A stretch of DNA of 64,000 bases from Candidatus Zambryskiibacteriota bacterium (GTDB taxonomy: Bacteria > Patescibacteriota > Minisyncoccia > Phycocordibacterales > WO2-35-19): NCBI GenBank assembly GCA_048499675.1, contig JASNZL010000004.1, positions 28,463-92,462 on the forward strand, in the 5' to 3' direction. The notes under the pieces were generated by a model, which saw only the letters and a list, made by a program, of their open reading frames with translations, was not told the DNA's origin and made no database searches. Below, piece by piece: positions 3,361-58,835 of this stretch (within the stretch, counting starts at the first letter, position 1; each line of letters starts with the position of its first letter). The translations under genes and the position numbers were made by a program.

Positions 3361-5763
3361 CTATCGCGCTTCCTCCTCTGCAATTGCAGTAAGCATAGGG
3401 ATTACAGAATCAGGGTTTAGGGAGATTGCTTCGATGTTATTTTGAATTAGGAATCTTGTGAAATCAGGATAATCACTTGGAGCTTGTCCGCAGAAACCAA
3501 TGTATTTGCCTCTTTCTCTACATTTTTGAATTGCCATAGCGACGAGAGTTTTGACGGCTGGATCATTTTCATTTGAAATCGGAGCAACTATCGCAGAGTC
3601 TCTATCAAGTCCGAGAGTAAGTTGAGCTAGGTCATTGCTACCAATTGAGAATCCATCAAAAATGTCTAAGAATTCGTCTGCTCTCAAAACATTGGTTGGA
3701 ATCTCACACATCACGTAAACTTTAAGGCCGTCTTCACCGCGTCTCAAACCTTCTTCAGCCATAATTTCCAAAACTCTTCTGCCTTCGTCCGGTGTCCTGC
3801 AAAATGGAACCATTGGTACAATGTTTTTGATACCAAATTCATCTCTTATTTTTTTGATTGCTTGACACTCCAATCTAAAAGCATCTACGAAATTTGGGTG
3901 AGCGTATCTAGAAGCCCCTCGCCAACCAATCATAGGATTTTCTTCGTCTGGTTCATAATCTTTACCACCAAGAAGGGTAGCGTATTCGTTTGTTTTGAAG
4001 TCACTAAACCTTACAATCACATCACTTGGCCAAAATGCAGAACCAATTTGAGCGATACCTTCTGCCAGTTTATCTACATAAAAGGCGACTTTGTCTTCAT
4101 ACCCCAGAGTTGCTTGTTCAATCTTTTTTTTCAATGTCTCACTCTTTAAGTTATTGAAATCAAGTAATGCTTTTGGATGAACTTTGATGGTAGAGGCAAT
4201 GATAAATTCTTCACGAGCAAGACCGACGCCCTTGTTTGGAATAAAAGAATACATGAAAGCGCTTTCTGGTGAACCAACATTTAGACAAACTTTGGTCCTT
4301 GTCTCAGGTATAGAAGTGATGTCGTGAACGGTCTCTTTCCATTCTAGTTTTCCTTCATAAATCTTACCCGTCGTTCCACTTGATGTGTCTATGGTCAAAA
4401 CATCGCCAGTTTTTATTTTTGATAGAGCATTTCCAGTGCCAATCACAGCAGGAATACCAAGCTCTCGTGAGACAATTGCGGCATGACTCGTCCTACCGCC
4501 TTTTTCTGTAATAATCGCACTAGCAATTTTCATAATTGGTTCCCAGTCAGGATCTGTAATCTCAGTAACCAAAATTTCACCCTTCTCAAATTCGTGGAGT
4601 TTTTTTACATCCGTAATAACACGCGCTTTGCCACTTGCAATCTTTGTACCAACAGCGATACCTGTATCAACAAGTTTACCTTCTGAAACGAGTGCATACT
4701 CTGTGATAGTGAGACGATTCTTTTCTGATTGAACAGTTTCTGGTCTGGCTTGAACAATAAAAAGTTCACCCGTAATACCATCTTTGGCCCATTCAATATC
4801 CATTGGCATATGCTTGCCGGCGTTTTCACTATAATGAGCTTCAATATCCATACCCCAGCGAGCCAAAGTAAGAATTTCATCATTAGTAAGCACATAAACT
4901 TCTCTGTCTTTTTTTAGAACCGGCACTTCTTTTACCGGATTTGTCTTTGTCCCGCTGTAAATCATTTTTGTTTCTTTGCTTCCAATGTCTTTTTTTATGA
5001 TAGGGGAGAAACCATCTTTGAAAGTTTTTTTGAAAACCAAATATGAATCTGGAGTAACCTTACCTTGGACCACCATCTCTCCCAACCCCCACGACGCATC
5101 AATTTCAACCACATCCTTAAAACCACTCTCGGTATCAAGAGTAAACATAACACCAGAAGAACCTTCGTCACTTCTTACCATTTTTTGGACACCTACCGAA
5201 AGAGCCACATCAAAGTGATTGAACCCTTTGTCTACTCTATAAGAAATAGCTCTGTCATTCCAAAGGGAGGCCATCGCTTCTTTGGTAGCTTTCAAAACAT
5301 TTTTGCCACCCACAACATTAAGATATGTTTCGTGCTCTCCTGCAAAACTTGCTCCGGGCAAATCTTCGGCCGTAGCACTACTTCTAACTGCTGTATCAGC
5401 TTCTTTCATGTTATAAGCATTTGATAAGTCGATATAAGCTTTTAGAATTTCTTCTTCTAAATCTTTTGGTAAATCAGAATCTATTATTTTTTCTCTGATT
5501 GCTTTACCAACTTTTTGAAGTTGCTTCACATCATGAGTGTCTAAACCTTCCAAATTCTTTTCTATAAAAGAAGTGAGGCCTTCCTTCTCAATAAAATATC
5601 TATAGGCATATGCCGTGACAGCAAAACCGTTTGGTACCCTAATACCTTTTGGTACAAGAGTTGTATACATTTCGCCGAGAGAGGCATTTTTGCCACCAAC
5701 AAGGGAGACATCCTCTATGTGAAGTTGATCAAACCAGAGTATAAATTTCTTTTCTTTATCCAT
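3361..5763 (-). CDS. ppsA: Phosphoenolpyruvate synthase (pyruvate, water dikinase)
   Basis: 800 aa. It has an N-terminal PPDK_N domain (GGKNASLGEM), a swivel domain GGRTSHAAIVSRELGIPAV, and a C-terminal PEP-utilizers TIM-barrel. Confidence 0.9.
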   Translation of the reverse strand: MDKEKKFILWFDQLHIEDVSLVGGKNASLGEMYTTLVPKGIRVPNGFAVTAYAYRYFIEKEGLTSFIEKNLEGLDTHDVKQLQKVGKAIREKIIDSDLPKDLEEEILKAYIDLSNAYNMKEADTAVRSSATAEDLPGASFAGEHETYLNVVGGKNVLKATKEAMASLWNDRAISYRVDKGFNHFDVALSVGVQKMVRSDEGSSGVMFTLDTESGFKDVVEIDASWGLGEMVVQGKVTPDSYLVFKKTFKDGFSPIIKKDIGSKETKMIYSGTKTNPVKEVPVLKKDREVYVLTNDEILTLARWGMDIEAHYSENAGKHMPMDIEWAKDGITGELFIVQARPETVQSEKNRLTITEYALVSEGKLVDTGIAVGTKIASGKARVITDVKKLHEFEKGEILVTEITDPDWEPIMKIASAIITEKGGRTSHAAIVSRELGIPAVIGTGNALSKIKTGDVLTIDTSSGTTGKIYEGKLEWKETVHDITSIPETRTKVCLNVGSPESAFMYSFIPNKGVGLAREEFIIASTIKVHPKALLDFNNLKSETLKKKIEQATLGYEDKVAFYVDKLAEGIAQIGSAFWPSDVIVRFSDFKTNEYATLLGGKDYEPDEENPMIGWRGASRYAHPNFVDAFRLECQAIKKIRDEFGIKNIVPMVPFCRTPDEGRRVLEIMAEEGLRRGEDGLKVYVMCEIPTNVLRADEFLDIFDGFSIGSNDLAQLTLGLDRDSAIVAPISNENDPAVKTLVAMAIQKCRERGKYIGFCGQAPSDYPDFTRFLIQNNIEAISLNPDSVIPMLTAIAEEEAR

Positions 5764-47342: not shown

Positions 47343-48290
47343 ATGAACAAACTAAAAGAATTTTTTAATATAGAAAACAGAACCAAATACTTTTTTCACG
47401 TACTTGTTTTTCTCTCTGTTCTGTCTATAATTTTTTTCTACTTACTGCTAATTGGTGAGAGGGCGCTCTATCGAAATGAACAGGTTGTCACTGCCGAAAA
47501 AATAAACCCTTTTGATGAAATAAGCTTAGAAGCCAAGAGTGCTTTTGTGTGGGATGTTATAAATCAAAGAGAATTATTTTCCAAAAATAGCGATCTACCG
47601 CTACCTCTTGCTTCACTGACAAAAGTAATGACAGCAATCACTGCGGATATTTACTTACCAGAAAATGCAAAAATAATTATTATAGATGAATATTTAAAAC
47701 CAGAAGGAGACTCAGGTCTTCTTGTGGGTGATATTTGGGATGCAAAAGATTTGCGAGATTTTATGCTAATGACATCTTCAAATGACGGCGCATACGCACT
47801 TGCTTCTGTCGCCCAAGCAATAAAAAGAAACGAACTCGACCCCCAAGCAGAGTTTATAAAAAAAATGAATGAAATAGCTTTGGATATTGGGCTAACAAAT
47901 AGCAAGTATATAAATGAACACGGACTTGATGAAAGTTTGGACAGGGGAGGAGCTTATGGAACAGCACGAGATAGTGCAATTCTGTTTGAATACGCCCTAA
48001 CAAATCACGGAGATATAATGGAAGCAACGAGATACAAAAACTTGAATTTCCAAAGTGGAGCACAAGCGTATAATGCAATCAACACCAACGGCTCAATTGA
48101 CGAAATACCGGGTCTTATTGCCTCAAAAACGGGCTTTACTGACCTCGCAGGGGGTAATTTGGTAATAGCGTTTGATGCCGGCCTCGGAAGGCCTATTATA
48201 GTCTCTATCCTTGGTTCCAGCCGAGAAGGCAGGTTTGTAGATACAAAGAAGTTGGTAGATGCAACGCTACAATACCTTTGGGAAGAATAG
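47343..48290 (+). CDS. D-alanyl-D-alanine carboxypeptidase (peptidase S11, PBP5/6-like)
   Basis: PLASLTKVMTA (SxxK), SSND (SxN) and KTGFT (KTG) are present. There is an N-terminal TM anchor. Confidence 0.8.
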   Translation: MNKLKEFFNIENRTKYFFHVLVFLSVLSIIFFYLLLIGERALYRNEQVVTAEKINPFDEISLEAKSAFVWDVINQRELFSKNSDLPLPLASLTKVMTAITADIYLPENAKIIIIDEYLKPEGDSGLLVGDIWDAKDLRDFMLMTSSNDGAYALASVAQAIKRNELDPQAEFIKKMNEIALDIGLTNSKYINEHGLDESLDRGGAYGTARDSAILFEYALTNHGDIMEATRYKNLNFQSGAQAYNAINTNGSIDEIPGLIASKTGFTDLAGGNLVIAFDAGLGRPIIVSILGSSREGRFVDTKKLVDATLQYLWEE

Positions 48291-48557: not shown

Positions 48558-48633
48558 CTAATTTACAATTGGAATTTGGAATTTATTTAAAATAATTAGG
48601 ATAATTAGAATAATTGTATTTAAACTTCGTATC

Positions 48634-51015
48634 ATGATTTATACAAAACATTTTAAAGAATTAAATAAGAACGATGCTAATATTGCTGGGGGCAAGGGAG
48701 CATCATTGGGGGAGATGACTCAGTCCGGCATACCGGTGCCCGAGGGCTTTGTTGTCTTATCAACTACATTTGACCATTTCCTCAAAGAAACTGATCTTGT
48801 TCAAGAAATTGATGCGATTTTAAAAACTGTGGACCACAAAGCAATTCACACTGTAGATTCTGCTTCTGAAAAAATAAGGGGACTCATTGAAAGCAGAGAA
48901 GTGCCGGACGATATAGCAAAAGAAATAATGAGCGACTTTGAAAAGCTCGGTGCCGAATTTGTGGCGGTGAGATCATCGGCCACAGCCGAAGATGGTGCTG
49001 AACACGCTTGGGCAGGTCAGCTTGAAAGTTTTCTTAATACTGACAAAAATTCACTGTTGGACCATGTTCGCAAATGTTGGGGTTCACTATTCACTCCTCG
49101 CGCTATTTTTTACCGATTTGAAAAAGATTTGAGCGGGACAGAAATCTCTGTCGCTGTTGTTGTCCAAAAAATGATTCAATCTGAAGTTTCGGGTATTGCC
49201 TTCTCAGTTCACCCTATTACCGAAGACTACAATCAACTCATAATTGAAGCGGGGTATGGCTTGGGCGAAGCGATTGTCTCTGGCTCAATTACTCCTGACT
49301 CTTATGTGGTAGAAAAGGGGCCGTTGCAAATCATTGACCAAAATATTGCGGAGCAGAAGAAAGCTTTAGTAAAAGAAGGAGCGAGCAACAATTGGGTGAT
49401 GGTAGAAAAAGAAAAAAGAGAACAACAAAAGCTCTCGGGAAAAGAAATTACAGAGCTCTCAAAAATTATTATACAAATAGAAAAACATTATGGTTTCCCT
49501 TGTGACATAGAATGGGCTTTAGAGGGTGGCAAATTTTATATTGTCCAAAGTAGACCCATCACTACACTTGCTCCGAAAAAAGAATTAAAAACTTTAATAA
49601 ATACTGAAGACTATCATTTTTTTGGTCTATGGAAATGCAACCTTTTCTCTGATTGGTACTGGTCTAAATGGCTTGTTCCTGAATATGCTAAAAGAATTGG
49701 TCTCGATCTAAATGATAGCGGTATTTTTGTAATAAACGGAGGATATTTCTTCACAAAAAAATCTGTTATAGAAACAATCCGCGAGTACGCAAAAAATATT
49801 ATTGAGAGTAAGGATAAGGAAAAATTGGCTCTCCTTAGGAAACTAACAAATGAAATTTATGACACTTCTCTTGCTGTTTCAGAAAAAATAAGCGAGGCAG
49901 AGCCGAATGAAATAAATGTTAGAGAAATGGCTGAGTCGGGTCAGCAAATAATGTTTCCATGGTGTTTCGGGTATATTCTTTCTGAAGTTTTTGATGAATT
50001 TCTTATTCCTGCTGCAGACAAAGCTGGAATTAATAGAGAAGATATTTCTGCTCTTATTCCACCATTTAAAACTCCTCTTATTGAAGCCCAAGATAATTTA
50101 CGCTTAATAAAAAAAGTTTTGGAAGATAAGGGTCATTGGAATCTACTTCTTGAAGATTCCACCAAAGCTATTAATGAAATTCAGAAAGATGAGCAGGTGT
50201 CCAAATTGATTCAAGAGCATTCATTTAAATATGGATGGACTAATATTATGAACCTTGTAGGTGAGGACCCAAATATTGAGCAAGTTATTGATCAGATAAC
50301 CCACATTCCATCTCAACAAACTCATATCACAAACTCTGTAGCGGACGAAGATTTTGAATTTCTAATTCAATGTGCTTCAACCACCGCATATCTCCGTCAA
50401 ACTGGTGTTGAATATTTCTCTATATACTCACGATACGCACAAAAACTTTTAGGATTAGCAGCAAATAAAATTGGTATTACTTACCGAGAACTTCTTGATC
50501 TCAATCTCAACGAAATTATTGATGGAGTTAATGGAAAAGATGTTAAAGAAATTGTAAAAAGACGAGCAAATGATAACTGGGCTATCTATTCAATGCTTAA
50601 CAACGAAGAGCCAGTTGTGTTTGATGACCCTGAAGTAATAAAACAGCTTGTTTCTGTAATGGTGCCAAAAGCCGAGGCTTCAGAAGATGGAACTATCAAG
50701 GGACAGATTGGTAATAAAGGATCAGGGAAAGGAAAAGTAAAAATTATTCTTTCTCTGGATGATTTTCACAAAATGGAACCTGGAGCCGTATTGGTTACTA
50801 CAATGACTACGCCAGATTACGTTCCGTTAATGCAAAAAGCTTCTGCAATTATTACTGATATTGGAGGTTTGCTTTGTCATGCGGCAATCATTTCCCGCGA
50901 GTTAAATATTCCTTGTGTGATTGGTACAAAATTTGCAACTCAACTCCTAAAAGATGATATGGAAGTGGAAGTGGATGCGGATAATGGAGTAGTTAAGATA
51001 TTAGCTAAAAATTAA
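48634..51015 (+). CDS. PEP synthase / rifampin-phosphotransferase-like dikinase (PPDK_N ATP-binding domain, central domain, and C-terminal phosphohistidine swivel domain), with no PEP-utilizers TIM-barrel
   Basis: The N-terminus NDANIAGGKGASLGEM...VAVRSSATAEDG is PPDK_N. The C-terminus AVLVTTMTTPDYVPLMQKASAIITDIGGLLCHAAIISRELNIPCVIGT is the swivel domain with the His. Confidence 0.75.
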   Translation: MIYTKHFKELNKNDANIAGGKGASLGEMTQSGIPVPEGFVVLSTTFDHFLKETDLVQEIDAILKTVDHKAIHTVDSASEKIRGLIESREVPDDIAKEIMSDFEKLGAEFVAVRSSATAEDGAEHAWAGQLESFLNTDKNSLLDHVRKCWGSLFTPRAIFYRFEKDLSGTEISVAVVVQKMIQSEVSGIAFSVHPITEDYNQLIIEAGYGLGEAIVSGSITPDSYVVEKGPLQIIDQNIAEQKKALVKEGASNNWVMVEKEKREQQKLSGKEITELSKIIIQIEKHYGFPCDIEWALEGGKFYIVQSRPITTLAPKKELKTLINTEDYHFFGLWKCNLFSDWYWSKWLVPEYAKRIGLDLNDSGIFVINGGYFFTKKSVIETIREYAKNIIESKDKEKLALLRKLTNEIYDTSLAVSEKISEAEPNEINVREMAESGQQIMFPWCFGYILSEVFDEFLIPAADKAGINREDISALIPPFKTPLIEAQDNLRLIKKVLEDKGHWNLLLEDSTKAINEIQKDEQVSKLIQEHSFKYGWTNIMNLVGEDPNIEQVIDQITHIPSQQTHITNSVADEDFEFLIQCASTTAYLRQTGVEYFSIYSRYAQKLLGLAANKIGITYRELLDLNLNEIIDGVNGKDVKEIVKRRANDNWAIYSMLNNEEPVVFDDPEVIKQLVSVMVPKAEASEDGTIKGQIGNKGSGKGKVKIILSLDDFHKMEPGAVLVTTMTTPDYVPLMQKASAIITDIGGLLCHAAIISRELNIPCVIGTKFATQLLKDDMEVEVDADNGVVKILAKN

Positions 51016-51017
51016 TT

Positions 51018-51815
51018 ATGGAAGGGTTAAATCAGGAAAATCAAGAGAGTAGAGAAAACGGTAAAAATGTTCATATTAAAACCCAATTTCTTAGACACGG
51101 AGAAAAAAGCTCATTTTATGGGGATTTGAGTGAAAAAGGAATTGAAGATGCTAAAAAGTATGGGAGAGAATTTCCGTCTTCAGAGGGTGGTGTAAAAGGA
51201 TTTCATAGTCATATAAAAAGGTCAAAAGATACATTAGAAAATATTATCCAGGAAGTAGAATCAGAGAAGAAATATAAATCCAGACCACGTAATGAACTGC
51301 TACTTAACGACCCAGGTGAAATATCTTGGTCGGAAGAATCAATAAAAAAATACAGAGAACTAACAGAAAGCCATAAAGGCGATGAGAATGCTGCTTTAGA
51401 CTGGTATTTATCTTATGGCGATAAAAGGCCTGATCAAGATACTATCTCGCCGAAAGAAGCGGCTACGAGAATAGCTCGCTTAATTGAGAAGTATACGCGC
51501 ATGGTTGCTCGCCTAAAAAGCAATTCATCTGTTGATTTTATACACGTATCACATTCTGGAACAATGGAACCATTCCTTCAACAAATTATAGGTGATGAAA
51601 TTGAAGAAAACCCCATAAACCCAGCTGGAAAAACTTTTCTTGAAAAACTTGGTGGAGTAATAAATTTTTTGGAAGGATTCCAGATTGATGTAAAAAGTGA
51701 TGAAAATGATAATATTATGGCCGAACTTACTTTTAGAGGGCGTAAATTCTCCATAGACCTAAAAAAATTGGAGGAAATAACATTCTACGATCGGGATGTT
51801 AATAATGATGAATGA
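51018..51815 (+). CDS. Histidine-phosphatase superfamily protein (PGM/SixA branch)
   Basis: FLRHGEKS is the RHG catalytic motif and VSHSGT is the second His. It overlaps the next gene by 4 nt (ATGA). Confidence 0.55.
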   Translation: MEGLNQENQESRENGKNVHIKTQFLRHGEKSSFYGDLSEKGIEDAKKYGREFPSSEGGVKGFHSHIKRSKDTLENIIQEVESEKKYKSRPRNELLLNDPGEISWSEESIKKYRELTESHKGDENAALDWYLSYGDKRPDQDTISPKEAATRIARLIEKYTRMVARLKSNSSVDFIHVSHSGTMEPFLQQIIGDEIEENPINPAGKTFLEKLGGVINFLEGFQIDVKSDENDNIMAELTFRGRKFSIDLKKLEEITFYDRDVNNDE

Positions 51816-52945
51816 CTATGAAAATTGAGGATATCAAAAAAGAAAATTGGCAGTATCTGGCAAGTAGAGAAATCCCAATTCTGTTTGGTTCATTGGTCAC
51901 TCAAAGTTATAAAGAAACTTTTCCCAAAACCGGAATAATTGGGATAGAGGCGGCACTAGGAACCGATATTATTAATTGTGGAAAATATTTAGTCTTTAGG
52001 TCATACAGAAAAGTATCTGCCCTCAATAAATCTACAGAATTTTTTGTAAAAACTTTTAAACACAATCCAGAAAGAGTTGATAATATCTTTAAATTAGCAG
52101 CGGCGGCAACGGATAGTGCAAATCATAATATTTCTAAATTATCCAAAATATCAGATTATTTAACAAAAAAAGACTTAAAGAGTTTTTACTTCTTATTTAG
52201 AGAAGCTTTCATATCATTTTTCCCATTGCAAGTATTTCCATTCTCGTTAGAGCAAGTATTAAATGGGGCAGGAGAAGTAGATTTAGTGAATCAATACAAG
52301 GATATTTTGGTTAAATGGAGAAGTGAAGTGCATGATACCGAAATAAAACTAGAAGATTTCTTGGGAATATTTTTAAATAAAGCAAAAGAACTCTTAAATA
52401 TAGATTTTAGATACTGGTCCGATAAAGAAGTGTTAGATTATTTCAATACTTCTGCTGTTGTCCCCGATACCACAATCAAAAACAGGAAAGAATACTCTGT
52501 GCTTGTTTTTGATACCAATTTGACACCTCCTTACCAAGTTATTGATGGTACAGATGCAGAAGAAATTTGTACTTTTATGGACGAACCAGTTAAAGAAAAA
52601 GTATTTGGAACAGAATTTAAAGGAAGGCCTGTATATCCCGGCCATGTTAAAGCAAACGTTTTTTTAATAAATAAAAAAGAAGATTTTAAAAATATCCCTG
52701 AAGAATCTGTAGTGGTCGCCCGCGTTATTGAAATGGACGATATCAGATGGATTAAATTAAAAAAAATTGCAGCAGCCATAACGGAGGAAGGTGGGCTTAC
52801 AACTCATATAGCAATTATGGGACGTGAACTTAAAATACCGACGATAGTAGGAGTTAAGGGTATCGTTGAATCAGTAAGAACAAATGATACATTGGATGTG
52901 GATTCTGAAAATGGGCTAATTAAAATTATCAATAAATTACAATAA
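51812..52945 (+). CDS. PEP-utilizing-enzyme swivel (phosphohistidine) domain protein with an uncharacterised N-terminal domain. Paralog of the C-terminal part of 48634-51015.
   Basis: The C-terminus SVVVARVIEMDDIRWIKLKKIAAAITEEGGLTTHIAIMGRELKIPTIVGV is a swivel domain. There is no ATP-binding domain. Confidence 0.6.
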   Translation: MTMKIEDIKKENWQYLASREIPILFGSLVTQSYKETFPKTGIIGIEAALGTDIINCGKYLVFRSYRKVSALNKSTEFFVKTFKHNPERVDNIFKLAAAATDSANHNISKLSKISDYLTKKDLKSFYFLFREAFISFFPLQVFPFSLEQVLNGAGEVDLVNQYKDILVKWRSEVHDTEIKLEDFLGIFLNKAKELLNIDFRYWSDKEVLDYFNTSAVVPDTTIKNRKEYSVLVFDTNLTPPYQVIDGTDAEEICTFMDEPVKEKVFGTEFKGRPVYPGHVKANVFLINKKEDFKNIPEESVVVARVIEMDDIRWIKLKKIAAAITEEGGLTTHIAIMGRELKIPTIVGVKGIVESVRTNDTLDVDSENGLIKIINKLQ

Positions 52946-52954
52946 TTTAAAATC

Positions 52955-53962
52955 ATGCAAACATATAAACAAGTTTATACAAGAGAAGTTTGTTTAATCG
53001 CCCTTGAAATTTGGGAGGAGCATCAGTTGCACCTTCTTAAAGAAGTTTTCGGAGATGTGCCACCACTTTCAATTTTTGACGTCTATGGAGGTGTAGGTAA
53101 AGTTTATTACCAAGAGGACACACAGGATATATGGTCCAATATTATCGCTAACAAAGCTAATAAAGATTTATCTTTTGTGCCTGAGCAGATGGAATTACTT
53201 GGCAAGAATGTAGATAGGCTTGAAAAAATTTGGCACCAAAAGAAGCTTTCTTCCAGAGAAGAAGTCGTCGATTTGTTTTCACTAGCCGCTTGGACTTGGG
53301 TTGGTGTTTCCGTCTCATATTTCCTGCCAGACATAAAAGATGTATCTCAAAAAGACCAGGATTTGGGCATGGCTTTACGAAATCGCACCTTAGACTTCCT
53401 TGAATTCACCGACCATGTTTTACAGGACACACTTAAAGATCTTTACCCTAATCTTGGCGATTTGGTCAAATATATATCAATTGATGAATTGAAGAGAAAT
53501 GAGATCCCAAATGAAGAAGTTTTGAAAGAAAGAGAGAAACATTACATTTATTACGATTTTAAGATTCACACTAACATAAGCATAGCTGAATTTTTGAAGG
53601 ATAATAATATTGAAATTAAAGAAGATGCTATTCCAGAAAATCTAAAAGAAATAAAAGGGCAAACCGCTATGGGCGGTAAAGTCACGGGTCCTGTTAGGAT
53701 TCTGCATAAAAAATCAGAGATTCCAGAATTACTAGATGGTGAAGTTTTGGTTGCTACAATGACTACTCCCGACTATCTACCGGCCATGAATAAAGCCATA
53801 GCCTTTGTAACTGACGAAGGAGGTGTAACTTGTCATGCTGCTATCGTGGCTAGAGAAATTGGTAAACCTTGTGTTATAGGAACAAAAATAGCAACAAAAG
53901 CACTCAAAACCGGTGATATAATAGAAATTGACGCTGATGCCGGTCTTATCAAAATTTTGTAG
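52955..53962 (+). CDS. PEP-utilizing-enzyme swivel (phosphohistidine) domain protein with an uncharacterised N-terminal domain. Second paralog.
   Basis: The C-terminus EVLVATMTTPDYLPAMNKAIAFVTDEGGVTCHAAIVAREIGKPCVIGT is a swivel domain. Confidence 0.6.
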   Translation: MQTYKQVYTREVCLIALEIWEEHQLHLLKEVFGDVPPLSIFDVYGGVGKVYYQEDTQDIWSNIIANKANKDLSFVPEQMELLGKNVDRLEKIWHQKKLSSREEVVDLFSLAAWTWVGVSVSYFLPDIKDVSQKDQDLGMALRNRTLDFLEFTDHVLQDTLKDLYPNLGDLVKYISIDELKRNEIPNEEVLKEREKHYIYYDFKIHTNISIAEFLKDNNIEIKEDAIPENLKEIKGQTAMGGKVTGPVRILHKKSEIPELLDGEVLVATMTTPDYLPAMNKAIAFVTDEGGVTCHAAIVAREIGKPCVIGTKIATKALKTGDIIEIDADAGLIKIL

Positions 53963-54183
53963 ACAAAAGACCGCTCCGAAGAGCAGTCTGTTTCTCACCT
54001 CCTTTCTGGTGAATTAAGCCTCTTGATTTACGACCGTGGCTTAGTTTGGGTCGGTTCTTTTTCATTGTCCTTGTTGTTGGGTTGCTCTGTCCGCGTTTGC
54101 GAAACAGGTTTTTGTTGGGGCCGATCCTTACGGATAACCCCCACAAATCGCAAGCCACCACGCGATCCGAATCCGGCCATGTT

Positions 54184-54381
54184 CTACCCCTTTCTTTTCT
54201 GTTCTGCTTGTCTCACCACTTCCTCGAGCGAGATGTCATTCGGAGTCCCTCCGGAAATCGAAACGAGGAATACGATGAAAATAGCAGCACCGACCCCCCA
54301 GTGGATGAAATAGCTAGCAGCCAAACAGGCAACAACCATCATCAGAGAAACGAGAAGGATAGATTTGTCTTTGGGTGTCAT
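54184..54381 (-). CDS. Small two-TM membrane protein in a GC-rich segment
   Basis: The 65 aa reads SILLVSLMMVVACLAASYFIHWGVGAAIFIVFLVSISGG. The overlapping + strand ORFs look non-protein-like. There is no clear RBS. Confidence 0.25.
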   Translation of the reverse strand: MTPKDKSILLVSLMMVVACLAASYFIHWGVGAAIFIVFLVSISGGTPNDISLEEVVRQAEQKRKG

Positions 54382-54419
54382 ATCTAAATACTATTATACA
54401 CAAAACTACCATTCTGTCA

Positions 54420-54774
54420 ATAGTAAAAAATTAATAAATTTATATAGTTTATCTCTGAAATTTAGGGTATTATGAGAGATACGGGTTCAAAAAACGAGAT
54501 ACGAAGTACGAGATAAGATAAAATTCTAAATACGAAACAAATTATAAATTCAAAATACAAATGTTCAAAAATAGATAATTTAACATGGAATTTGTGTTTT
54601 AAATAATAAGATTGGTAAACATTAGTAATTAATGAGTTAGAATTAAAAATTAAATCATTGAAAATTTATTGAAAATTCTAAATTGGAAATTGAAAATTTA
54701 TTAGCGAAATTAGCGTGCATTAGTGGATTGGTGGGTAGTGATTTTACACTTTGATATTTAAATTTTAAATTATT
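54420..54774. repeat. Repeat block (A, B, C, E, and D in reverse complement) preceding mraY
   Basis: aaacgagatacgaagtacgagataag, attctaaatacgaaacaaattataaattcaaaatacaaatgttcaaaa and the attgaaaatttattgaaaattctaaattggaaattgaaaattt motifs are present. Confidence 0.65.
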
Positions 54775-54804
54775 ATGATCGACATCGTAAAAGTATTTTT
54801 GCCG
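54775..54804 (+). repeat. Direct repeat 2: the first 30 nt of the mraY CDS, identical to 48528-48557
   Basis: Exact 30/30 match with copy 1. Confidence 0.85.
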
Positions 54805-55836
54805 GCAGTAGGGGCGTTTGCGCTCGGTGTTTTGATTACACCATTTCTCACAAACTTTTTATACAAACATAAATGCTGGAAAAAGAAGTCTGGCAAAACC
54901 GCACTAGATGGCAACGAAGCAAAAATATTTAATGAACTTCACAAAGAAAAAGAAGTAAACACTCCAAGAATGGGGGGCATTGTCATTTGGGCAAGCGCTT
55001 TTATTGTAATCGCTCTGGTCTGGATTATTTCTAACGTTTTCCCAACAGAGATAACTACCAAGCTTGATTTCCTATCAAGAAACCAAACGTGGATTCCTCT
55101 TGCGACACTTCTTTTTGGTTCAATTGTAGGACTAGTAGATGACTATTTGGAAGTCAGGGGACTTGAAAAAGGAGGACTTTCGCTCAAAAAAAGATTAGTT
55201 GCCGTAAGCTTGGTTACTCTTTCGGTTGCGTTTTGGTTTTACTTCAAACTTGATATAGACAGTATTGGGCTTCCATTTAAAGAAGAAGGTTTTTATTTGG
55301 GACCACTCTTTATAATTTTATTTTTGCTTACAGCACTATTTATTTACGCAGGAGGAGTAATAGATGGGATAGACGGTCTCGCTGGTGGAGTCTTTGCCAC
55401 AATGTTTGCTGCCTATGCTGGAATCGCATTTTATCAACAACAAATAGACCTCGCAGCTTTTTCGGCTACAGTCTCTGGTGGAATTTTGGCTTTTCTTTGG
55501 TTCAACATACCTCCGGCCAGATTTTATATGTCAGAAACTGGCTCAATGGGACTTACAATCACTCTTACAGTAGTAGCTTTTATGACAGACTCGCTTGGTA
55601 AGGGTTATGGATTTTTGGTCCTACCAATTATTGCTCTCCCACTTGTCATAACAGTTCTATCAAACATAATTCAAGTCTTATCAAAAAAAATAAGAGGCAA
55701 AAAAGTTTTTTTGGTGGCACCACTTCATCACCATTTTGAGGCAATTGGCTGGCCAGCATATAAAGTTACAATGAGATACTGGGTGTTCTCGACCATTTGT
55801 GCAATACTCGGCATATCGCTAGCACTTATTGGATAA
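54775..55836 (+). CDS. mraY: Phospho-N-acetylmuramoyl-pentapeptide transferase
   Basis: NTPRMGG and the GLVDDY (DD) motif are present, with a ten-TM profile. Confidence 0.9.
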   Translation: MIDIVKVFLPAVGAFALGVLITPFLTNFLYKHKCWKKKSGKTALDGNEAKIFNELHKEKEVNTPRMGGIVIWASAFIVIALVWIISNVFPTEITTKLDFLSRNQTWIPLATLLFGSIVGLVDDYLEVRGLEKGGLSLKKRLVAVSLVTLSVAFWFYFKLDIDSIGLPFKEEGFYLGPLFIILFLLTALFIYAGGVIDGIDGLAGGVFATMFAAYAGIAFYQQQIDLAAFSATVSGGILAFLWFNIPPARFYMSETGSMGLTITLTVVAFMTDSLGKGYGFLVLPIIALPLVITVLSNIIQVLSKKIRGKKVFLVAPLHHHFEAIGWPAYKVTMRYWVFSTICAILGISLALIG

Positions 55837-55860
55837 CGCGACACAAATAAACGATTATGG

Positions 55861-56030
55861 AAACGAGTTACGAAGTACGAGATACGAGTAACGATATATT
55901 TGAAATTAAAAATTGAAAGATTGAAAATTAAAATAAAAAACAAAAGTAACCCACCAATCACACGAATTTACACGAATCATAACGAATAAATATTAGTAAG
56001 ATTAGTATGCATTAGTAATTGGTGTGTTGT
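55861..56030. repeat. Repeat block (A, C, D, E) between mraY and ftsW
   Basis: aaacgagttacgaagtacgagatacgagtaacgat and gtaacccaccaatcacacgaatttacacgaatcataacgaataaa are present. Confidence 0.65.
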
Positions 56031-56044
56031 GGTAGAATAATAAA

Positions 56045-57151
56045 ATGAAAAAAACTGGAAAAATAAGTAGGCCTTTTTTGTTTTGGACAATTGTACTTGT
56101 TGTTTTTGGTTTTTTTATTTTTAGTTCAGCATCACTTGGAGTACTTGCAAGAAACGAAATAAAATTTGCAAACGTCGCCTTTAATCAAATATTTTTTGGA
56201 CTTTTTTTGGGCTCAATTGCTTGTATAATCTTTGCTCGCATTGATTACAAAATTTGGAAAAAATATGCATTTTATATTTTTATTGGCTCAATTGTTTTAA
56301 CCTTACTGGTATTTATTGACGCCCTAAGTCTCACACACGGCGGAGCAAGACGCTGGATAAATTTGAAATTTATATCTTTCCAACCATCTGAATTTTTAAA
56401 GATTGGATTTATTGCATATTTTTCTGCTTGGCTTAGTAGCATAAAAACAAAAGTAGAAACAATAAAATGGGGACTTTTTCCTTTCCTTTTATTTATGGGA
56501 ATTGTTGGTGGGATTCTGCTTGCTCAACCCGATACGGACACATTTGCTGTGATTATTTTTGCGTCCCTTGCAATATATATATCGGCTGGGGCTAGATGGA
56601 AACATATAGCGTCTATTGTTTTAATTGGTATTGCAATTATTACAATTTTGGCATTCACGAGACCTTATATTATGCAGAGAATACAAACAATGATTGATCC
56701 AAGCGCCAATGTTCAAACTACTGGATATCAATTGAGACAATCTCTTATTGCTGTTGGCTCTGGACAGATGTGGGGTAGGGGATTTGGTCAAAGTATTCAA
56801 AAATTTGAATATTTACCAGAGCCAATTGGTGATTCAGTTTTTGCTGTAGCAGCTGAGGAATTTGGTTTTGTGGGAGCAGTCACACTTATGTTCGTATTCG
56901 TAATGTTTGCACTTGAGGGAATAAAGATTGCAAACAGAGCACCTGATGATTTTGGGAAATATTTAACGCTCGGAATTATTGTAATGATAGTGTCGCAGGC
57001 TTTTTTGAATATCGGAGGTATGATAGGTGTTTTGCCACTAACGGGTATACCTCTGCCTTTTATAAGTCACGGTGGGACCGCTTTGTTTATAACCCTTATT
57101 GAAGTAGGTGTTATAATGAATGTGTCTAGGTCTGGAGGCACAAGAGGATAG
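56045..57151 (+). CDS. ftsW: SEDS-family peptidoglycan polymerase (FtsW/RodA)
   Basis: Ten TM helices. The conserved C-terminus PLTGIPLPFISHGGTALF is present. It lies between mraY and murG. Confidence 0.85.
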   Translation: MKKTGKISRPFLFWTIVLVVFGFFIFSSASLGVLARNEIKFANVAFNQIFFGLFLGSIACIIFARIDYKIWKKYAFYIFIGSIVLTLLVFIDALSLTHGGARRWINLKFISFQPSEFLKIGFIAYFSAWLSSIKTKVETIKWGLFPFLLFMGIVGGILLAQPDTDTFAVIIFASLAIYISAGARWKHIASIVLIGIAIITILAFTRPYIMQRIQTMIDPSANVQTTGYQLRQSLIAVGSGQMWGRGFGQSIQKFEYLPEPIGDSVFAVAAEEFGFVGAVTLMFVFVMFALEGIKIANRAPDDFGKYLTLGIIVMIVSQAFLNIGGMIGVLPLTGIPLPFISHGGTALFITLIEVGVIMNVSRSGGTRG

Positions 57152-57202
57152 CAGAATTTCCAATTTTCAATTTAAAATTTTCAATAAATTTTTAATTTAA
57201 AA

Positions 57203-57577
57203 ATGACTCAAACGGAGAAAAAATACGACTTGGAAGAAAGAACAGCTGTTTTTGGAGAATCAATTATAAAACTTTGTAGAAGTATAAAACAAGATAATAT
57301 AACTGCTCCAATAATAAACCAGCTCATCCGCTCTGGTACGAGCATCGGGGCAAATTATATGGAAGCAAATGGTGCAAGTTCAAAAAGGGATTTTGTAAAT
57401 AAGATTTTTATTTGTAAAAAAGAATCTCAAGAAACCAAACATTGGCTCCGTATGCTTTCTCTGAGTGTTACAGAGAACATTAAAGATGAATTAGAAAAAA
57501 TATCAAAAGAATGTCAGGAACTCGTGTTTATATTTCAGAAAATTGCTAGCACATCAAGAAACAATGAAAAAATATAG
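57203..57577 (+). CDS. Four-helix-bundle protein (TIGR02436, the family found in 23S rRNA intervening sequences)
   Basis: IGANYMEANGASSKRDF...ICKKESQETKHWLRML is the hallmark pattern of this family. It is inserted between ftsW and murG. Confidence 0.7.
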   Translation: MTQTEKKYDLEERTAVFGESIIKLCRSIKQDNITAPIINQLIRSGTSIGANYMEANGASSKRDFVNKIFICKKESQETKHWLRMLSLSVTENIKDELEKISKECQELVFIFQKIASTSRNNEKI

Positions 57578-57695
57578 CGAAAGAAGTTTTACAGGAATGT
57601 TATTAATTATGTTAAAATTTGGGTAATTAATTGAAAATTGAAACATTGTAAATTTAATGAAAATTCTAAATTATAAATTGAAAATTTAAAATAAT

Positions 57696-58835
57696 ATGAA
57701 AATTGTATTTACGGGTGGAGGAAGTGGGGGACACTTTTATCCAATAATAGCCATTGCAGAATCCATAAAAAAAATATCTAAAGAAAAGAAATTTCTATCA
57801 CCAGAGATGTATTTTTTTGGTCCAACCCCATATAACCCCGGACTTCTTTTTGATCATGGAATTATTTATAAAAAAGTTACAGCCGGAAAATTAAGGAGAT
57901 ACTTCTCGATAAAAAATTTTTTTGATTTATTTAAAACCGCTTGGGGCACTCTAAAAGCACTATTTGATATTTTTGGAATTTATCCAGACGTTGTTTTTAG
58001 CAAAGGGGGTTATGGTAGTTTCCCCGTTGTCCTTGCGGCAAGAATTTTAAGAATCCCAGTTTTTGTACATGAATCTGACTCAGCTCCAGGTAGAGCCAAT
58101 AAGTGGGCAGGAAAATTCGCAACAAGAATTGCTCTTTCTTACCGAGAAGCTTCTGAATATTTTAAAAGAAAAGATGCAATCGCTTATACCGGACAACCAA
58201 TAATAGAAGAAAAATTAACTCCAATTACAAACGGCGCCTTTGAATTTTTTAATTTTGATGAAAGCATCCCTGTAATATTTATTATCGGAGGTTCACAAGG
58301 AGCAAACATAATCAATAATATTATTCTTGACTCACTTCCTTTGCTCATAAAGGAGTATCAAATTATTCACCAAACAGGTGCGGGTAATATAGATGTAATC
58401 AAAGAATCTGCTGATGCCATTTTGCTCGATAACCCAAACAGAAAAAGATATAAAGCGTTTGGATATATGAATAATCTTGAAATGAGGATGGCCTCTGGTG
58501 CCTGTAGTCTTGTGATAAGTAGAGGTGGCTCTACTATATTTGAAATTGCATCATGGCACAAACCATCGATCATTATCCCGATTACAGAATCAAACGAAAA
58601 CCACCAAGTAAAAAATGCTTTTGCATATGCAAGGAGTGGCGCCTGCTCTGTTATCCAAGAAGAAAATTTAAAAGTAAATATAATTCTTTCTGAAATAAGA
58701 AGAATTTTGGAGAACGAAGAACTAAAAAACAAAATGACCCTTGGAGCAGAAAACTTTTTTAAAGTCGGTGCATCAGATGAGATAGCAAAAGAAATACTAA
58801 AAATTGCTCTGTCTCACGAAGGATTGGAAGAGTAA
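57696..58835 (+). CDS. murG: Undecaprenyldiphospho-muramoylpentapeptide beta-N-acetylglucosaminyltransferase
   Basis: MKIVFTGGGSGGHFYP and the C-terminal GT-B UDP-GlcNAc-binding domain are present. Confidence 0.9.
   Translation: MKIVFTGGGSGGHFYPIIAIAESIKKISKEKKFLSPEMYFFGPTPYNPGLLFDHGIIYKKVTAGKLRRYFSIKNFFDLFKTAWGTLKALFDIFGIYPDVVFSKGGYGSFPVVLAARILRIPVFVHESDSAPGRANKWAGKFATRIALSYREASEYFKRKDAIAYTGQPIIEEKLTPITNGAFEFFNFDESIPVIFIIGGSQGANIINNIILDSLPLLIKEYQIIHQTGAGNIDVIKESADAILLDNPNRKRYKAFGYMNNLEMRMASGACSLVISRGGSTIFEIASWHKPSIIIPITESNENHQVKNAFAYARSGACSVIQEENLKVNIILSEIRRILENEELKNKMTLGAENFFKVGASDEIAKEILKIALSHEGLEE

Follow-up and report, generated by a model that had tools for sequence, protein, structure and literature searches.

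The closest described systems to the one reported here are the two-component small-molecule dikinases. In HpeHI, HpeI is an ATP-grasp protein, HpeH combines a rifampin (RIF)-binding-like domain with a swivel domain that shuttles between sites, and the histidine of the swivel is essential; HpeHI, CreHI and PpsAB are homologous to rifampin phosphotransferase (RPH), which is their fused equivalent (PMC12167813). In all three pairs, the ATP-grasp protein (I component, or PpsB) and the protein carrying the substrate domain and the swivel (H component, or PpsA) are encoded by genes lying side by side in catabolic clusters in which carboxylases are the partners, and the H component measures ~600 aa. 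To our knowledge, all split dikinases so far are 1:1 pairs acting on phenolic compounds in free-living degraders. Here we describe an operon of four genes (g1 to g4, in gene order) located at 48634-53962 of a 64,000-nt stretch of DNA from a Candidatus Zambryskiibacteriota bacterium (hereafter the window, in whose positions all coordinates are given unless a related locus is named). The operon probably specifies a small-molecule dikinase in hub-and-spoke form, of the RPH and two-component (HpeHI, CreHI, PpsAB) kind, with one ATP-grasp domain (hereafter grasp) for three substrate modules where the known pairs have one I component for one H component, and with relatives of 1 to 13 modules hosted by the Candidate Phyla Radiation (CPR) and by DPANN (Diapherotrites, Parvarchaeota, Aenigmarchaeota, Nanoarchaeota and Nanohaloarchaeota) archaea. 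Searches of the open-access literature turned up two-component dikinases, RPH and the VadK protein, and no account of multi-module arrays of this kind from either CPR or DPANN.

The four genes are tightly packed open reading frames (ORFs) on the plus strand, with 2 bp between g1 and g2, a 4-bp overlap between g2 and g3 and 9 bp between g3 and g4; an initial annotation of this DNA, made from the sequence alone, had given their common direction, spacing and coordinates, all of which are exact. The first gene, g1 (48634-51015, plus strand, 793 aa), is predicted to encode a fused I+H dikinase made of a grasp (aa 1-319, 48634-49590; Pfam PPDK_N, PF01326, at residues 16-318, E-value 4.5e-97), a central domain (aa ~320-685) and a histidine swivel (aa ~686-793; PEP-utilizers, PF00391, at residues 715-785, E-value 8.6e-25). 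A Pfam scan found no PEP-utilizers_C domain (PF02896, the triose-phosphate isomerase (TIM) barrel) in g1, g3 or g4, in keeping with the architecture annotated for g1, PPDK_N plus swivel and no barrel. The motifs of the nucleotide site are kept (GGKGAS with K21, VRSSATAED with R113, DIEW with E293 and VQSRP with Q305 and R307), and the catalytic histidine of the swivel, H749 (50878-50880), lies within LLCHAAI, in the context TDIGGLLCH. The PPDK_N grasp and the PEP-utilizers swivel with its catalytic histidine are shared with phosphoenolpyruvate (PEP) synthase and pyruvate phosphate dikinase (PPDK), from which the operon differs by the absence of the barrel; a genuine ppsA gene with all three domains is located elsewhere in the window (3361-5763, minus strand), where it had been annotated as canonical.

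No Pfam model matches the central domain of g1 or the N-terminal domains (N-domains) of g3 and g4. A profile of the long class of substrate domains, which includes g1 aa 319-793, aligns over its positions 107-486 to residues 453-866 of RPH (E-value 6e-31), a segment that comprises most of the RIF-binding domain and the swivel. At the level of sequence profiles, the central domain of g1 is a homolog of the RIF-binding domain, and g1 has the same domain order (ATP-grasp, RIF-binding-like domain, swivel) as the RPH of known structure, RPH-Lm (PDB 5HV1, 5FBS). The gene is not an RPH ortholog, its score against the RPH equivalog model NF041857 being 354.8 bits for a cut-off of 999 bits, and every other NCBIfam cut-off was also missed (NF000283, 249.5 versus 1700 bits; the PEP synthase model NF005057, 456 versus 598 bits). 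Its closest PDB sequence match is a PEP synthase (8a8e). RPH is moreover a stand-alone single enzyme that is not known to charge other proteins, unlike what we propose for g1.

Related loci (numbered L001 onwards) were sampled as the best matches to g4. Among their stand-alone PPDK_N proteins, that of L008 gave 530 bits with the grasp of g1, that of L007 518 bits and that of L009 423 bits, versus 143 bits for the ppsA of the window. The identity of the g1 grasp is 60-78% to the stand-alone or fused grasps of related loci, including those of DPANN, versus 33% to ppsA. Since the g1 grasp is orthologous to stand-alone grasps, g1 itself is, as judged from these comparisons, a derived fusion of an I component and one H module; a stand-alone H homolog of its central domain is present in L001. 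The operon is in this respect unlike HpeHI, CreHI and PpsAB, as its grasp is fused to an H module, and the stand-alone I component that is missing here is found in the family.

The genes g3 (51812-52945, plus strand, 377 aa) and g4 (52955-53962, plus strand, 335 aa) each match the PEP-utilizers model only (residues 295-368, E-value 5.8e-18, and residues 261-330, E-value 7.5e-26, respectively), and only the swivel region of either protein matches PRK08296-type models of NCBIfam. We assign g3 a helical N-domain (aa 1 to ~262) followed by a divergent histidine swivel, and g4, a short “core” H component, an N-domain (aa 1 to ~230) followed by a histidine swivel. The catalytic histidines are H332 in g3 (52805-52807; LTTHIAI, within TEEGGLTTH) and H294 in g4 (53834-53836; VTCHAAI, within TDEGGVTCH), and the T/SxxGGxxxH context is present in g1, g3 and g4. 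The g4 swivel is 52% identical to that of g1 over 103 aa; g3 and g1 align over 202 aa at 28% identity, in a match that reaches upstream of the swivel. The swivel similarity, the catalytic histidines (CHAAI and THIAI) and the lack of an ATP-binding domain that had been annotated for g3 and g4 are therefore borne out by Pfam and by the residues themselves. In the swivel of g3, the near-universal MTTPDY(L/V)P is replaced by VIEMDDIRW (52697-52740, aa ~296-310) with the GGLTTH motif kept; the replacement is conserved in all five members of the g3 family and may change the docking partner of the swivel.

The initial annotation called the N-domains of g3 and g4 unrelated, which is not demonstrable. 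BLAST found no match between the two, and hhalign of the N-domains alone was not significant (E-value 0.03), the full-length match being driven by the swivel; likewise, the swivel was the only match between the g1 central domain and the g4 or g3 profiles. An iterated profile seeded with the g3 N-domain reached both g1-central-type and g4-type modules, and RPH was the best full-length structural match to the model of g4, the 202 aligned residues covering the swivel and ~100 more. A common origin of the N-domains is likely from these profile and structural matches, and is not proven for g3. The residues of the g4 N-domain that are invariant across 12 orthologs indicate purifying selection. The two genes had also been described as truncated paralogs of g1. 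They probably fill instead the H role of a known two-component architecture. As judged from their domains and from orthologous loci, both appear to be true H components, belonging to a small-molecule dikinase of the two-component HpeHI, PpsAB and RPH kind, and they are shorter (335-377 aa) than the ~600-aa H components of those pairs.

Clusters of grasp and H genes recur in related loci across CPR genomes. Searching with the g4 N-domain brought up a small family in CPR metagenomes; in each of the 10 distinct loci obtained via g4 homologs, the g4 ortholog had a PPDK_N gene or domain within its cluster. L008 and L009 show a minimal arrangement, a two-gene operon in which a grasp-only gene (314-320 aa) accompanies a g4-like one. 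A further swivel protein and an LMWPc phosphatase are present in L007, five swivel proteins go with the grasp-only protein of L005, and in a Moranbacteria locus (L001-L004) there are seven swivel modules for one grasp. L011 and L013 have the other minimal operon, a grasp-only gene (~316 aa) followed by a g2-like and a g3-like gene that overlap by 4 bp as they do in the window; L012 keeps the g2-g3 pair (its g3 relative being 39% identical), and in L091 the grasp is followed by a g2-like gene, after which the contig ends. Stand-alone grasps of 314-320 aa beside g4-like or g2- and g3-like genes were thus found in L007, L008, L009, L011, L013 and L091. The g3 family is tiny (five proteins, each with a g2-like gene), and so is the g2 family; g2 and g3 are translationally coupled and co-inherited, as indicated by the 4-bp overlap and by L011, L012 and L013. 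In L015, the same grasp and long-class fusion as g1 (796 aa) is directly followed by a g4-like gene, so that the g2-g3 pair resembles an inserted cassette that separates g1 from g4.

Over 85 non-redundant loci, we never observed more than one grasp per locus. Exactly one was found in 52 loci together with 1-13 swivel modules (median 3), amounting to 52 grasps for 282 swivels, and the GGxxxH motif was kept in 279 of 283 swivels, the other four comprising three with the histidine in a variant motif and one that is truncated. The N-domains fall into one long class (~381 aa) and several short classes (~236-280 aa): class 0, long, is that of the g1 central domain (~381 aa; 103 modules in 36 loci), class 1 that of g4 (~236 aa; 91 modules in 71 loci) and class 7 that of g3 (~266 aa; 4 modules in 4 loci). 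Two or more modules share one ORF in 17 loci, with ORFs of up to 4,201 aa. Single-ORF megaproteins with one grasp and 8-9 N-domain and swivel modules occur in L040 (8336-19621), L046 (1646-10981), L053 (81-9626) and L066 (6029-18634, with the grasp at the C-terminus), and the giant ORFs of L046 (3,111 aa), L040 (3,761 aa) and L066 (4,201 aa) were confirmed independently. The hosts of these megaproteins are metagenome-assembled genomes (MAGs) of Woesearchaeota, Parcubacteria and Saccharibacteria.

Separately, split grasp or H genes were seen in several MAGs (L048 6542-10228, L043 4179-5200, L069 8483-9488 and L023 1-1815), for instance as a 499-aa grasp fragment next to a 204-aa swivel fragment, or as an N-domain of 194 aa next to a swivel fragment of 162 aa; these are either frameshift pseudogenes or assembly errors.

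To assess the distribution of the family, we ran the g4 alignment against contigs in which each species is represented by one genome. At least 600 stretches matched, of which at least 597 were confirmed as g4 relatives; they are not all g4 orthologs, since the scan patterns came from the conserved swivel. The best 77 loci belong to many CPR lineages and to Woesearchaeota, Micrarchaeota and Nanoarchaeia, with a few MAG labels (Gammaproteobacteria, Methanosarcinales) that could not be checked. A single-sequence HMMER search with the g4 N-domain against 1.84 billion representatives (50% identity clusters) yielded 163 proteins at an E-value threshold of 1e-3, mostly stand-alone proteins of ~335-350 aa, the others being ~660-aa fusions of grasp, N-domain and swivel, or polyproteins. 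The grasp of the window (48634-49590) is 63-66% identical to those of the Woesearchaeota loci L034, L037 and L041, well above the identity of the substrate modules, which suggests, at the level of sequence identity, inter-domain transfer and a strong constraint on the shared grasp.

The second gene, g2 (51018-51815, plus strand, 265 aa), encodes a protein of branch 1 of the histidine phosphatase superfamily, with a weak match to His_Phos_1 that is above threshold (PF00300, 28.2 bits for a cut-off of 21.7). The annotated RHGE motif is present (R26-H27-G28-E29), and R26, H27 (51096-51098), E29, R68 (51219-51221), E83, R89, R91 and H179 (51552-51554) are invariant in the g2 family, indicating that the catalytic core of the superfamily is intact. 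SixA and cofactor-dependent phosphoglycerate mutase (dPGM) share with g2 the RHG catalytic histidine, the two arginines and the distal histidine. The SixA-like assignment proposed in the initial annotation was not recovered, as no SixA model was found in NCBIfam at an E-value of 0.1 or below and no SixA structure in a PDB search with the g2-family profile at an E-value of 1 or below; the best PDB matches, all weak, were E. coli dPGM (E-value 7.8e-5), then TIGAR and PhoE. SixA is a minimal, uncapped protein of ~160 aa. With 265 aa and ~110 residues between R68 and H179, g2 has instead the size of the capped small-molecule enzymes. We also considered g2 as a dPGM and rejected this assignment, since the only NCBIfam match was far below its cut-off (PRK01295, 12.7 versus 316 bits) and the family has P, Q, T or L at the position of the dPGM catalytic glutamate, which is not conserved. 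There is about an even chance that g2 hydrolyses a phosphomonoester of the same pathway, either the product of g3 or a downstream intermediate; a role as phosphatase of the swivel phosphohistidine is rather unlikely, and one as phospho-acceptor quite unlikely.

His_Phos_1 was the commonest Pfam family among the 67 genes embedded in clusters (14 genes, followed by Fic with 3, LMWPc with 2 and HD with 2) and ranked first among 130 flanking genes (9, followed by TrmB, HAD, LMWPc and Fic). In total, over ~83 loci, the genes in or next to clusters comprised 23 His_Phos_1, 6 Fic/DOC, 5 LMWPc, 4 HAD, 4 TrmB-type regulators and 2 HD genes, for example L031 9381-9998 (Fic), L001 3837-4424 and L007 7299-7733 (LMWPc), L001 11972-12607 (HAD) and L001 4494-5081 (HD, weak). 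By homology, 25 of 199 nearby genes were His_Phos_1-like versus 2 of 733 elsewhere in the same loci (odds ratio 52, p = 1e-15), a contrast that is inflated because the seeds of the test came from the nearby set. The association of His_Phos_1 with the clusters is real, and such phosphatases stand where the HpeHI, CreHI and PpsAB systems have carboxylases. At least three His_Phos_1 subfamilies occur in clusters; the only specific pairing with an H class is that of g2-like genes with the g3 class, and a subfamily of ~300 aa sits after several different H classes.

Taken with the domain content, these comparisons point to a system that resembles a two-component small-molecule dikinase and lies, by sequence, within the RPH superfamily. 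It can be classed neither as an RPH ortholog nor as a PEP synthase, a SixA or a dPGM, whose cut-offs or defining features were tested and not reached. In the hub-and-spoke reading, proposed by analogy with HpeHI and from this anatomy, the g1 grasp would bind ATP and phosphorylate the catalytic histidines of the swivels, acting in cis on its own H749 and in trans on H332 of g3 and H294 of g4. Each charged swivel would then swing back to the helical RIF-binding-like domain of the same polypeptide and pass its phosphoryl group to a different small-molecule acceptor bound by its own N-domain, for a dikinase net reaction of ATP + X + H2O -> AMP + X-P + Pi. One grasp and three modules would thus give three substrate specificities with a single nucleotide-binding domain. 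The initial annotation had already proposed one ATP-loading domain charging several swivels that carry their own substrate domains, a part of its proposal that fits the comparative evidence.

The form it gave to this idea, a relay in which the phosphohistidine of g1 is handed to the swivel histidines of g3 and g4 and a SixA-like g2 resets the system, appears highly improbable. The enrichment of His_Phos_1 near clusters (subject to the ascertainment bias above) and the membership of SixA in the superfamily of g2 would suit such a relay, against which stand the SixA-free matches of g2, its long insert and above all the loci in which the grasp protein has no swivel (L008, L009, L011, L013). Because the grasp protein has no swivel there, the H swivels are the only possible phospho-acceptors, and as such a grasp must charge them directly, the first histidine is dispensable and no His-to-His transfer is needed. 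A relay of the type of Enzyme I in the phosphotransferase system (PTS) differs further, in that the operon lacks PEP-utilizers_C and that no HPr-like acceptor was found among the 197 genes scanned. It is also very unlikely that g3 and g4 operate independently of g1, with another donor (PpsA encoded at 3361-5763, or a grasp encoded elsewhere) or as carriers running in reverse from a phosphorylated X. In favour of this, HpeH alone can transfer phosphate between two phenolic substrates (PMC12167813), 33 of 85 loci with a g4-like gene lack a grasp within 10 kb, and the g3 swivel is about equally distant from those of g1 and ppsA. This reading is countered by the gene spacing, which suggests translational coupling, by the co-clustering of PPDK_N with g4 in all 10 fetched loci, by the natural fusions that join grasp and modules in one chain and by the grasp itself, which forms a distinct and highly conserved clade with only 33% identity to ppsA. 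Shared domains are all that speaks for the cluster being a set of decaying ppsA duplicates without a function of its own, a practically negligible reading. Comparing the operon with ppsA by blastn, as the initial annotation had in mind, gave a single match of 98 nt at 69% identity in the swivel motif; the ORFs are intact with their catalytic residues conserved, and orthologs with invariant N-domain residues exist across phyla. A degraded or recent duplication of ppsA was rejected on the blastn result and these orthologs.

The main rival, itself unlikely, is a regulatory phosphotransfer directed at proteins, as in VadK or the PTS, that His_Phos_1, LMWPc or Fic partners would reverse or modulate. 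VadK, a PPDK-derived protein, autophosphorylates on histidine and binds metabolic enzymes (PMC13400623). Compared by description, VadK (Rv1127c) is like the present system in having an ATP-grasp and a swivel with no PEP/pyruvate function and in its histidine autophosphorylation, and unlike it in that VadK is one protein and lacks an array of distinct swivel modules. The partners enriched in the clusters belong to families that include protein phosphatases and modifiers (23 His_Phos_1, 5 LMWPc and 6 Fic), and outside RPH the short helical N-domains of g3 and g4 match only generic helical bundles. Small-molecule acceptors are favoured by the sequence homology of the g1-type domain to the RIF-binding domain and by the fact that every characterised enzyme with a RIF-binding-like domain and a swivel (RPH, HpeHI, CreHI, PpsAB, PigC/HapC) acts on small molecules; in addition, no conserved candidate target protein recurs, as neither an HPr-like nor any other recurrent small acceptor or target protein was found among the 197 in-cluster and flanking genes.

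Several observations weigh against the hub-and-spoke dikinase reading. No grasp lies within 10 kb in 33 of the 85 loci with a g4-like gene, some of whose contigs are truncated, so that grasp adjacency is not universal. The counts given above describe g4-containing clusters only, and gene calls in the related loci are plain ORFs. The divergent swivel of g3 might not dock on the g1 grasp: it matches the swivel of g1 with 47 bits, below the 70 bits of that of ppsA. At 230-262 aa, the N-domains of g4 and g3 reach about half the length of the RIF-binding domain of RPH or its counterpart in HpeH, only ~100 residues of g4 superpose on the RIF-binding domain, and the AlphaFold2 model of g3, built on a five-sequence alignment, is unusable (mean predicted local distance difference test score 50.9; helical core at 68-225). 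LMWPc, Fic and His_Phos_1 partners would suit a protein substrate equally well. Finally, no recurrent metabolic neighbour that would name the substrate was found among the 197 neighbouring genes, beyond the phosphatases, Fic and TrmB.

Relative to the described dikinases, what appears new is the layout of one grasp for many modules, H modules as short as 335-377 aa, megaproteins of concatenated modules, the spread over CPR and DPANN with a grasp 60-78% identical across two domains of life, and the tight link to His_Phos_1. More tentatively, and with less confidence than in the dikinase reading itself, the operon may be a small example of a large undescribed organisation of CPR and DPANN, with one charging grasp, many interchangeable modules and His_Phos_1 partners, the 1-13 modules per locus being either separate genes or assembly-line-like proteins of 2,000-4,200 aa. 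If so, this would be a new way to build a kinase family, in which one costly nucleotide-binding part is kept and cheap substrate modules diversify; a single-copy grasp is a plausible economy for genomes of ~1 Mb, and the layout occurs in groups with a metabolism that is for the most part unexplained. In ultra-small symbionts, such a system could serve as a general, ATP-economical platform that phosphorylates salvaged metabolites or xenobiotics, and g2 and g3 might together form a functional unit of a new type, where the swivel phosphohistidine feeds, or is drained by, an enzyme of the phosphoglycerate mutase fold. The proteins of g1, g2, g3 and g4 make up a defined set, each small and soluble, for tests of charging in trans and for finding the acceptors. 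In the megaproteins, a single ATP site would have to serve 8-9 swivels, which raises the question of how it gets to them.

Around the operon, a GC-rich hairpin (53968-53989; 9 pairs, TTCG loop) starts 6 bp past the stop codon of g4 and is terminator-like; it likely marks the end of the operon, and it was scored as the terminator of a convergent small gene on the minus strand. Weak sigma-70-like promoter matches (48569-48614, plus strand) lie within the 343-bp gap upstream of g1; they reach 9 of 12 positions only and are not above the shuffled expectation for the region, and are thus tentative. No RNA genes were detected in the window by Rfam, at the gathering threshold, or by a tRNA scan, and a PADLOC scan of all four proteins found no defence-system match.

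The small convergent gene is a 65-aa ORF on the minus strand (54381-54184) that looks membrane-spanning from its hydrophobic sequence and has no Pfam match. It is preceded by a perfect TTGACA-16-TATAAT promoter (54420-54393), its terminator hairpin is at 53989-53968, and it is also found in L010. The region 53990-54420 has a GC content of 46-55% for a background of ~35%, and the ~190 nt from the stop of this ORF to the hairpin are unexplained.

Further out, the neighbourhood of the operon is one of cell division and cell wall genes, with a Peptidase_S11 D-Ala-D-Ala carboxypeptidase upstream (47343-48290) and MraY, FtsW and MurG downstream (54775-58835). MraZ, RsmH and FtsI genes adjoin the orthologous operons of L007 (7975-11341) and L008 (44-3246), an LD-carboxypeptidase is near the operon of L011, and a penicillin-binding protein and Ddl-like ATP-grasps are near that of L009. 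This could reflect lineage synteny or be a functional hint; the DPANN relatives have no such neighbours. Genes for riboflavin kinase, FAD synthetase and riboflavin synthesis flank the arrays of L001 (14952-16964) and L005 (10506-11296), whose g4 orthologs are only 48-52% identical to that of the window, a pattern that was not seen generally. In the window, a 23S_rRNA_IVP gene (57203-57577), encoding a four-helix-bundle protein of 124 aa, sits between the FtsW and MurG genes.

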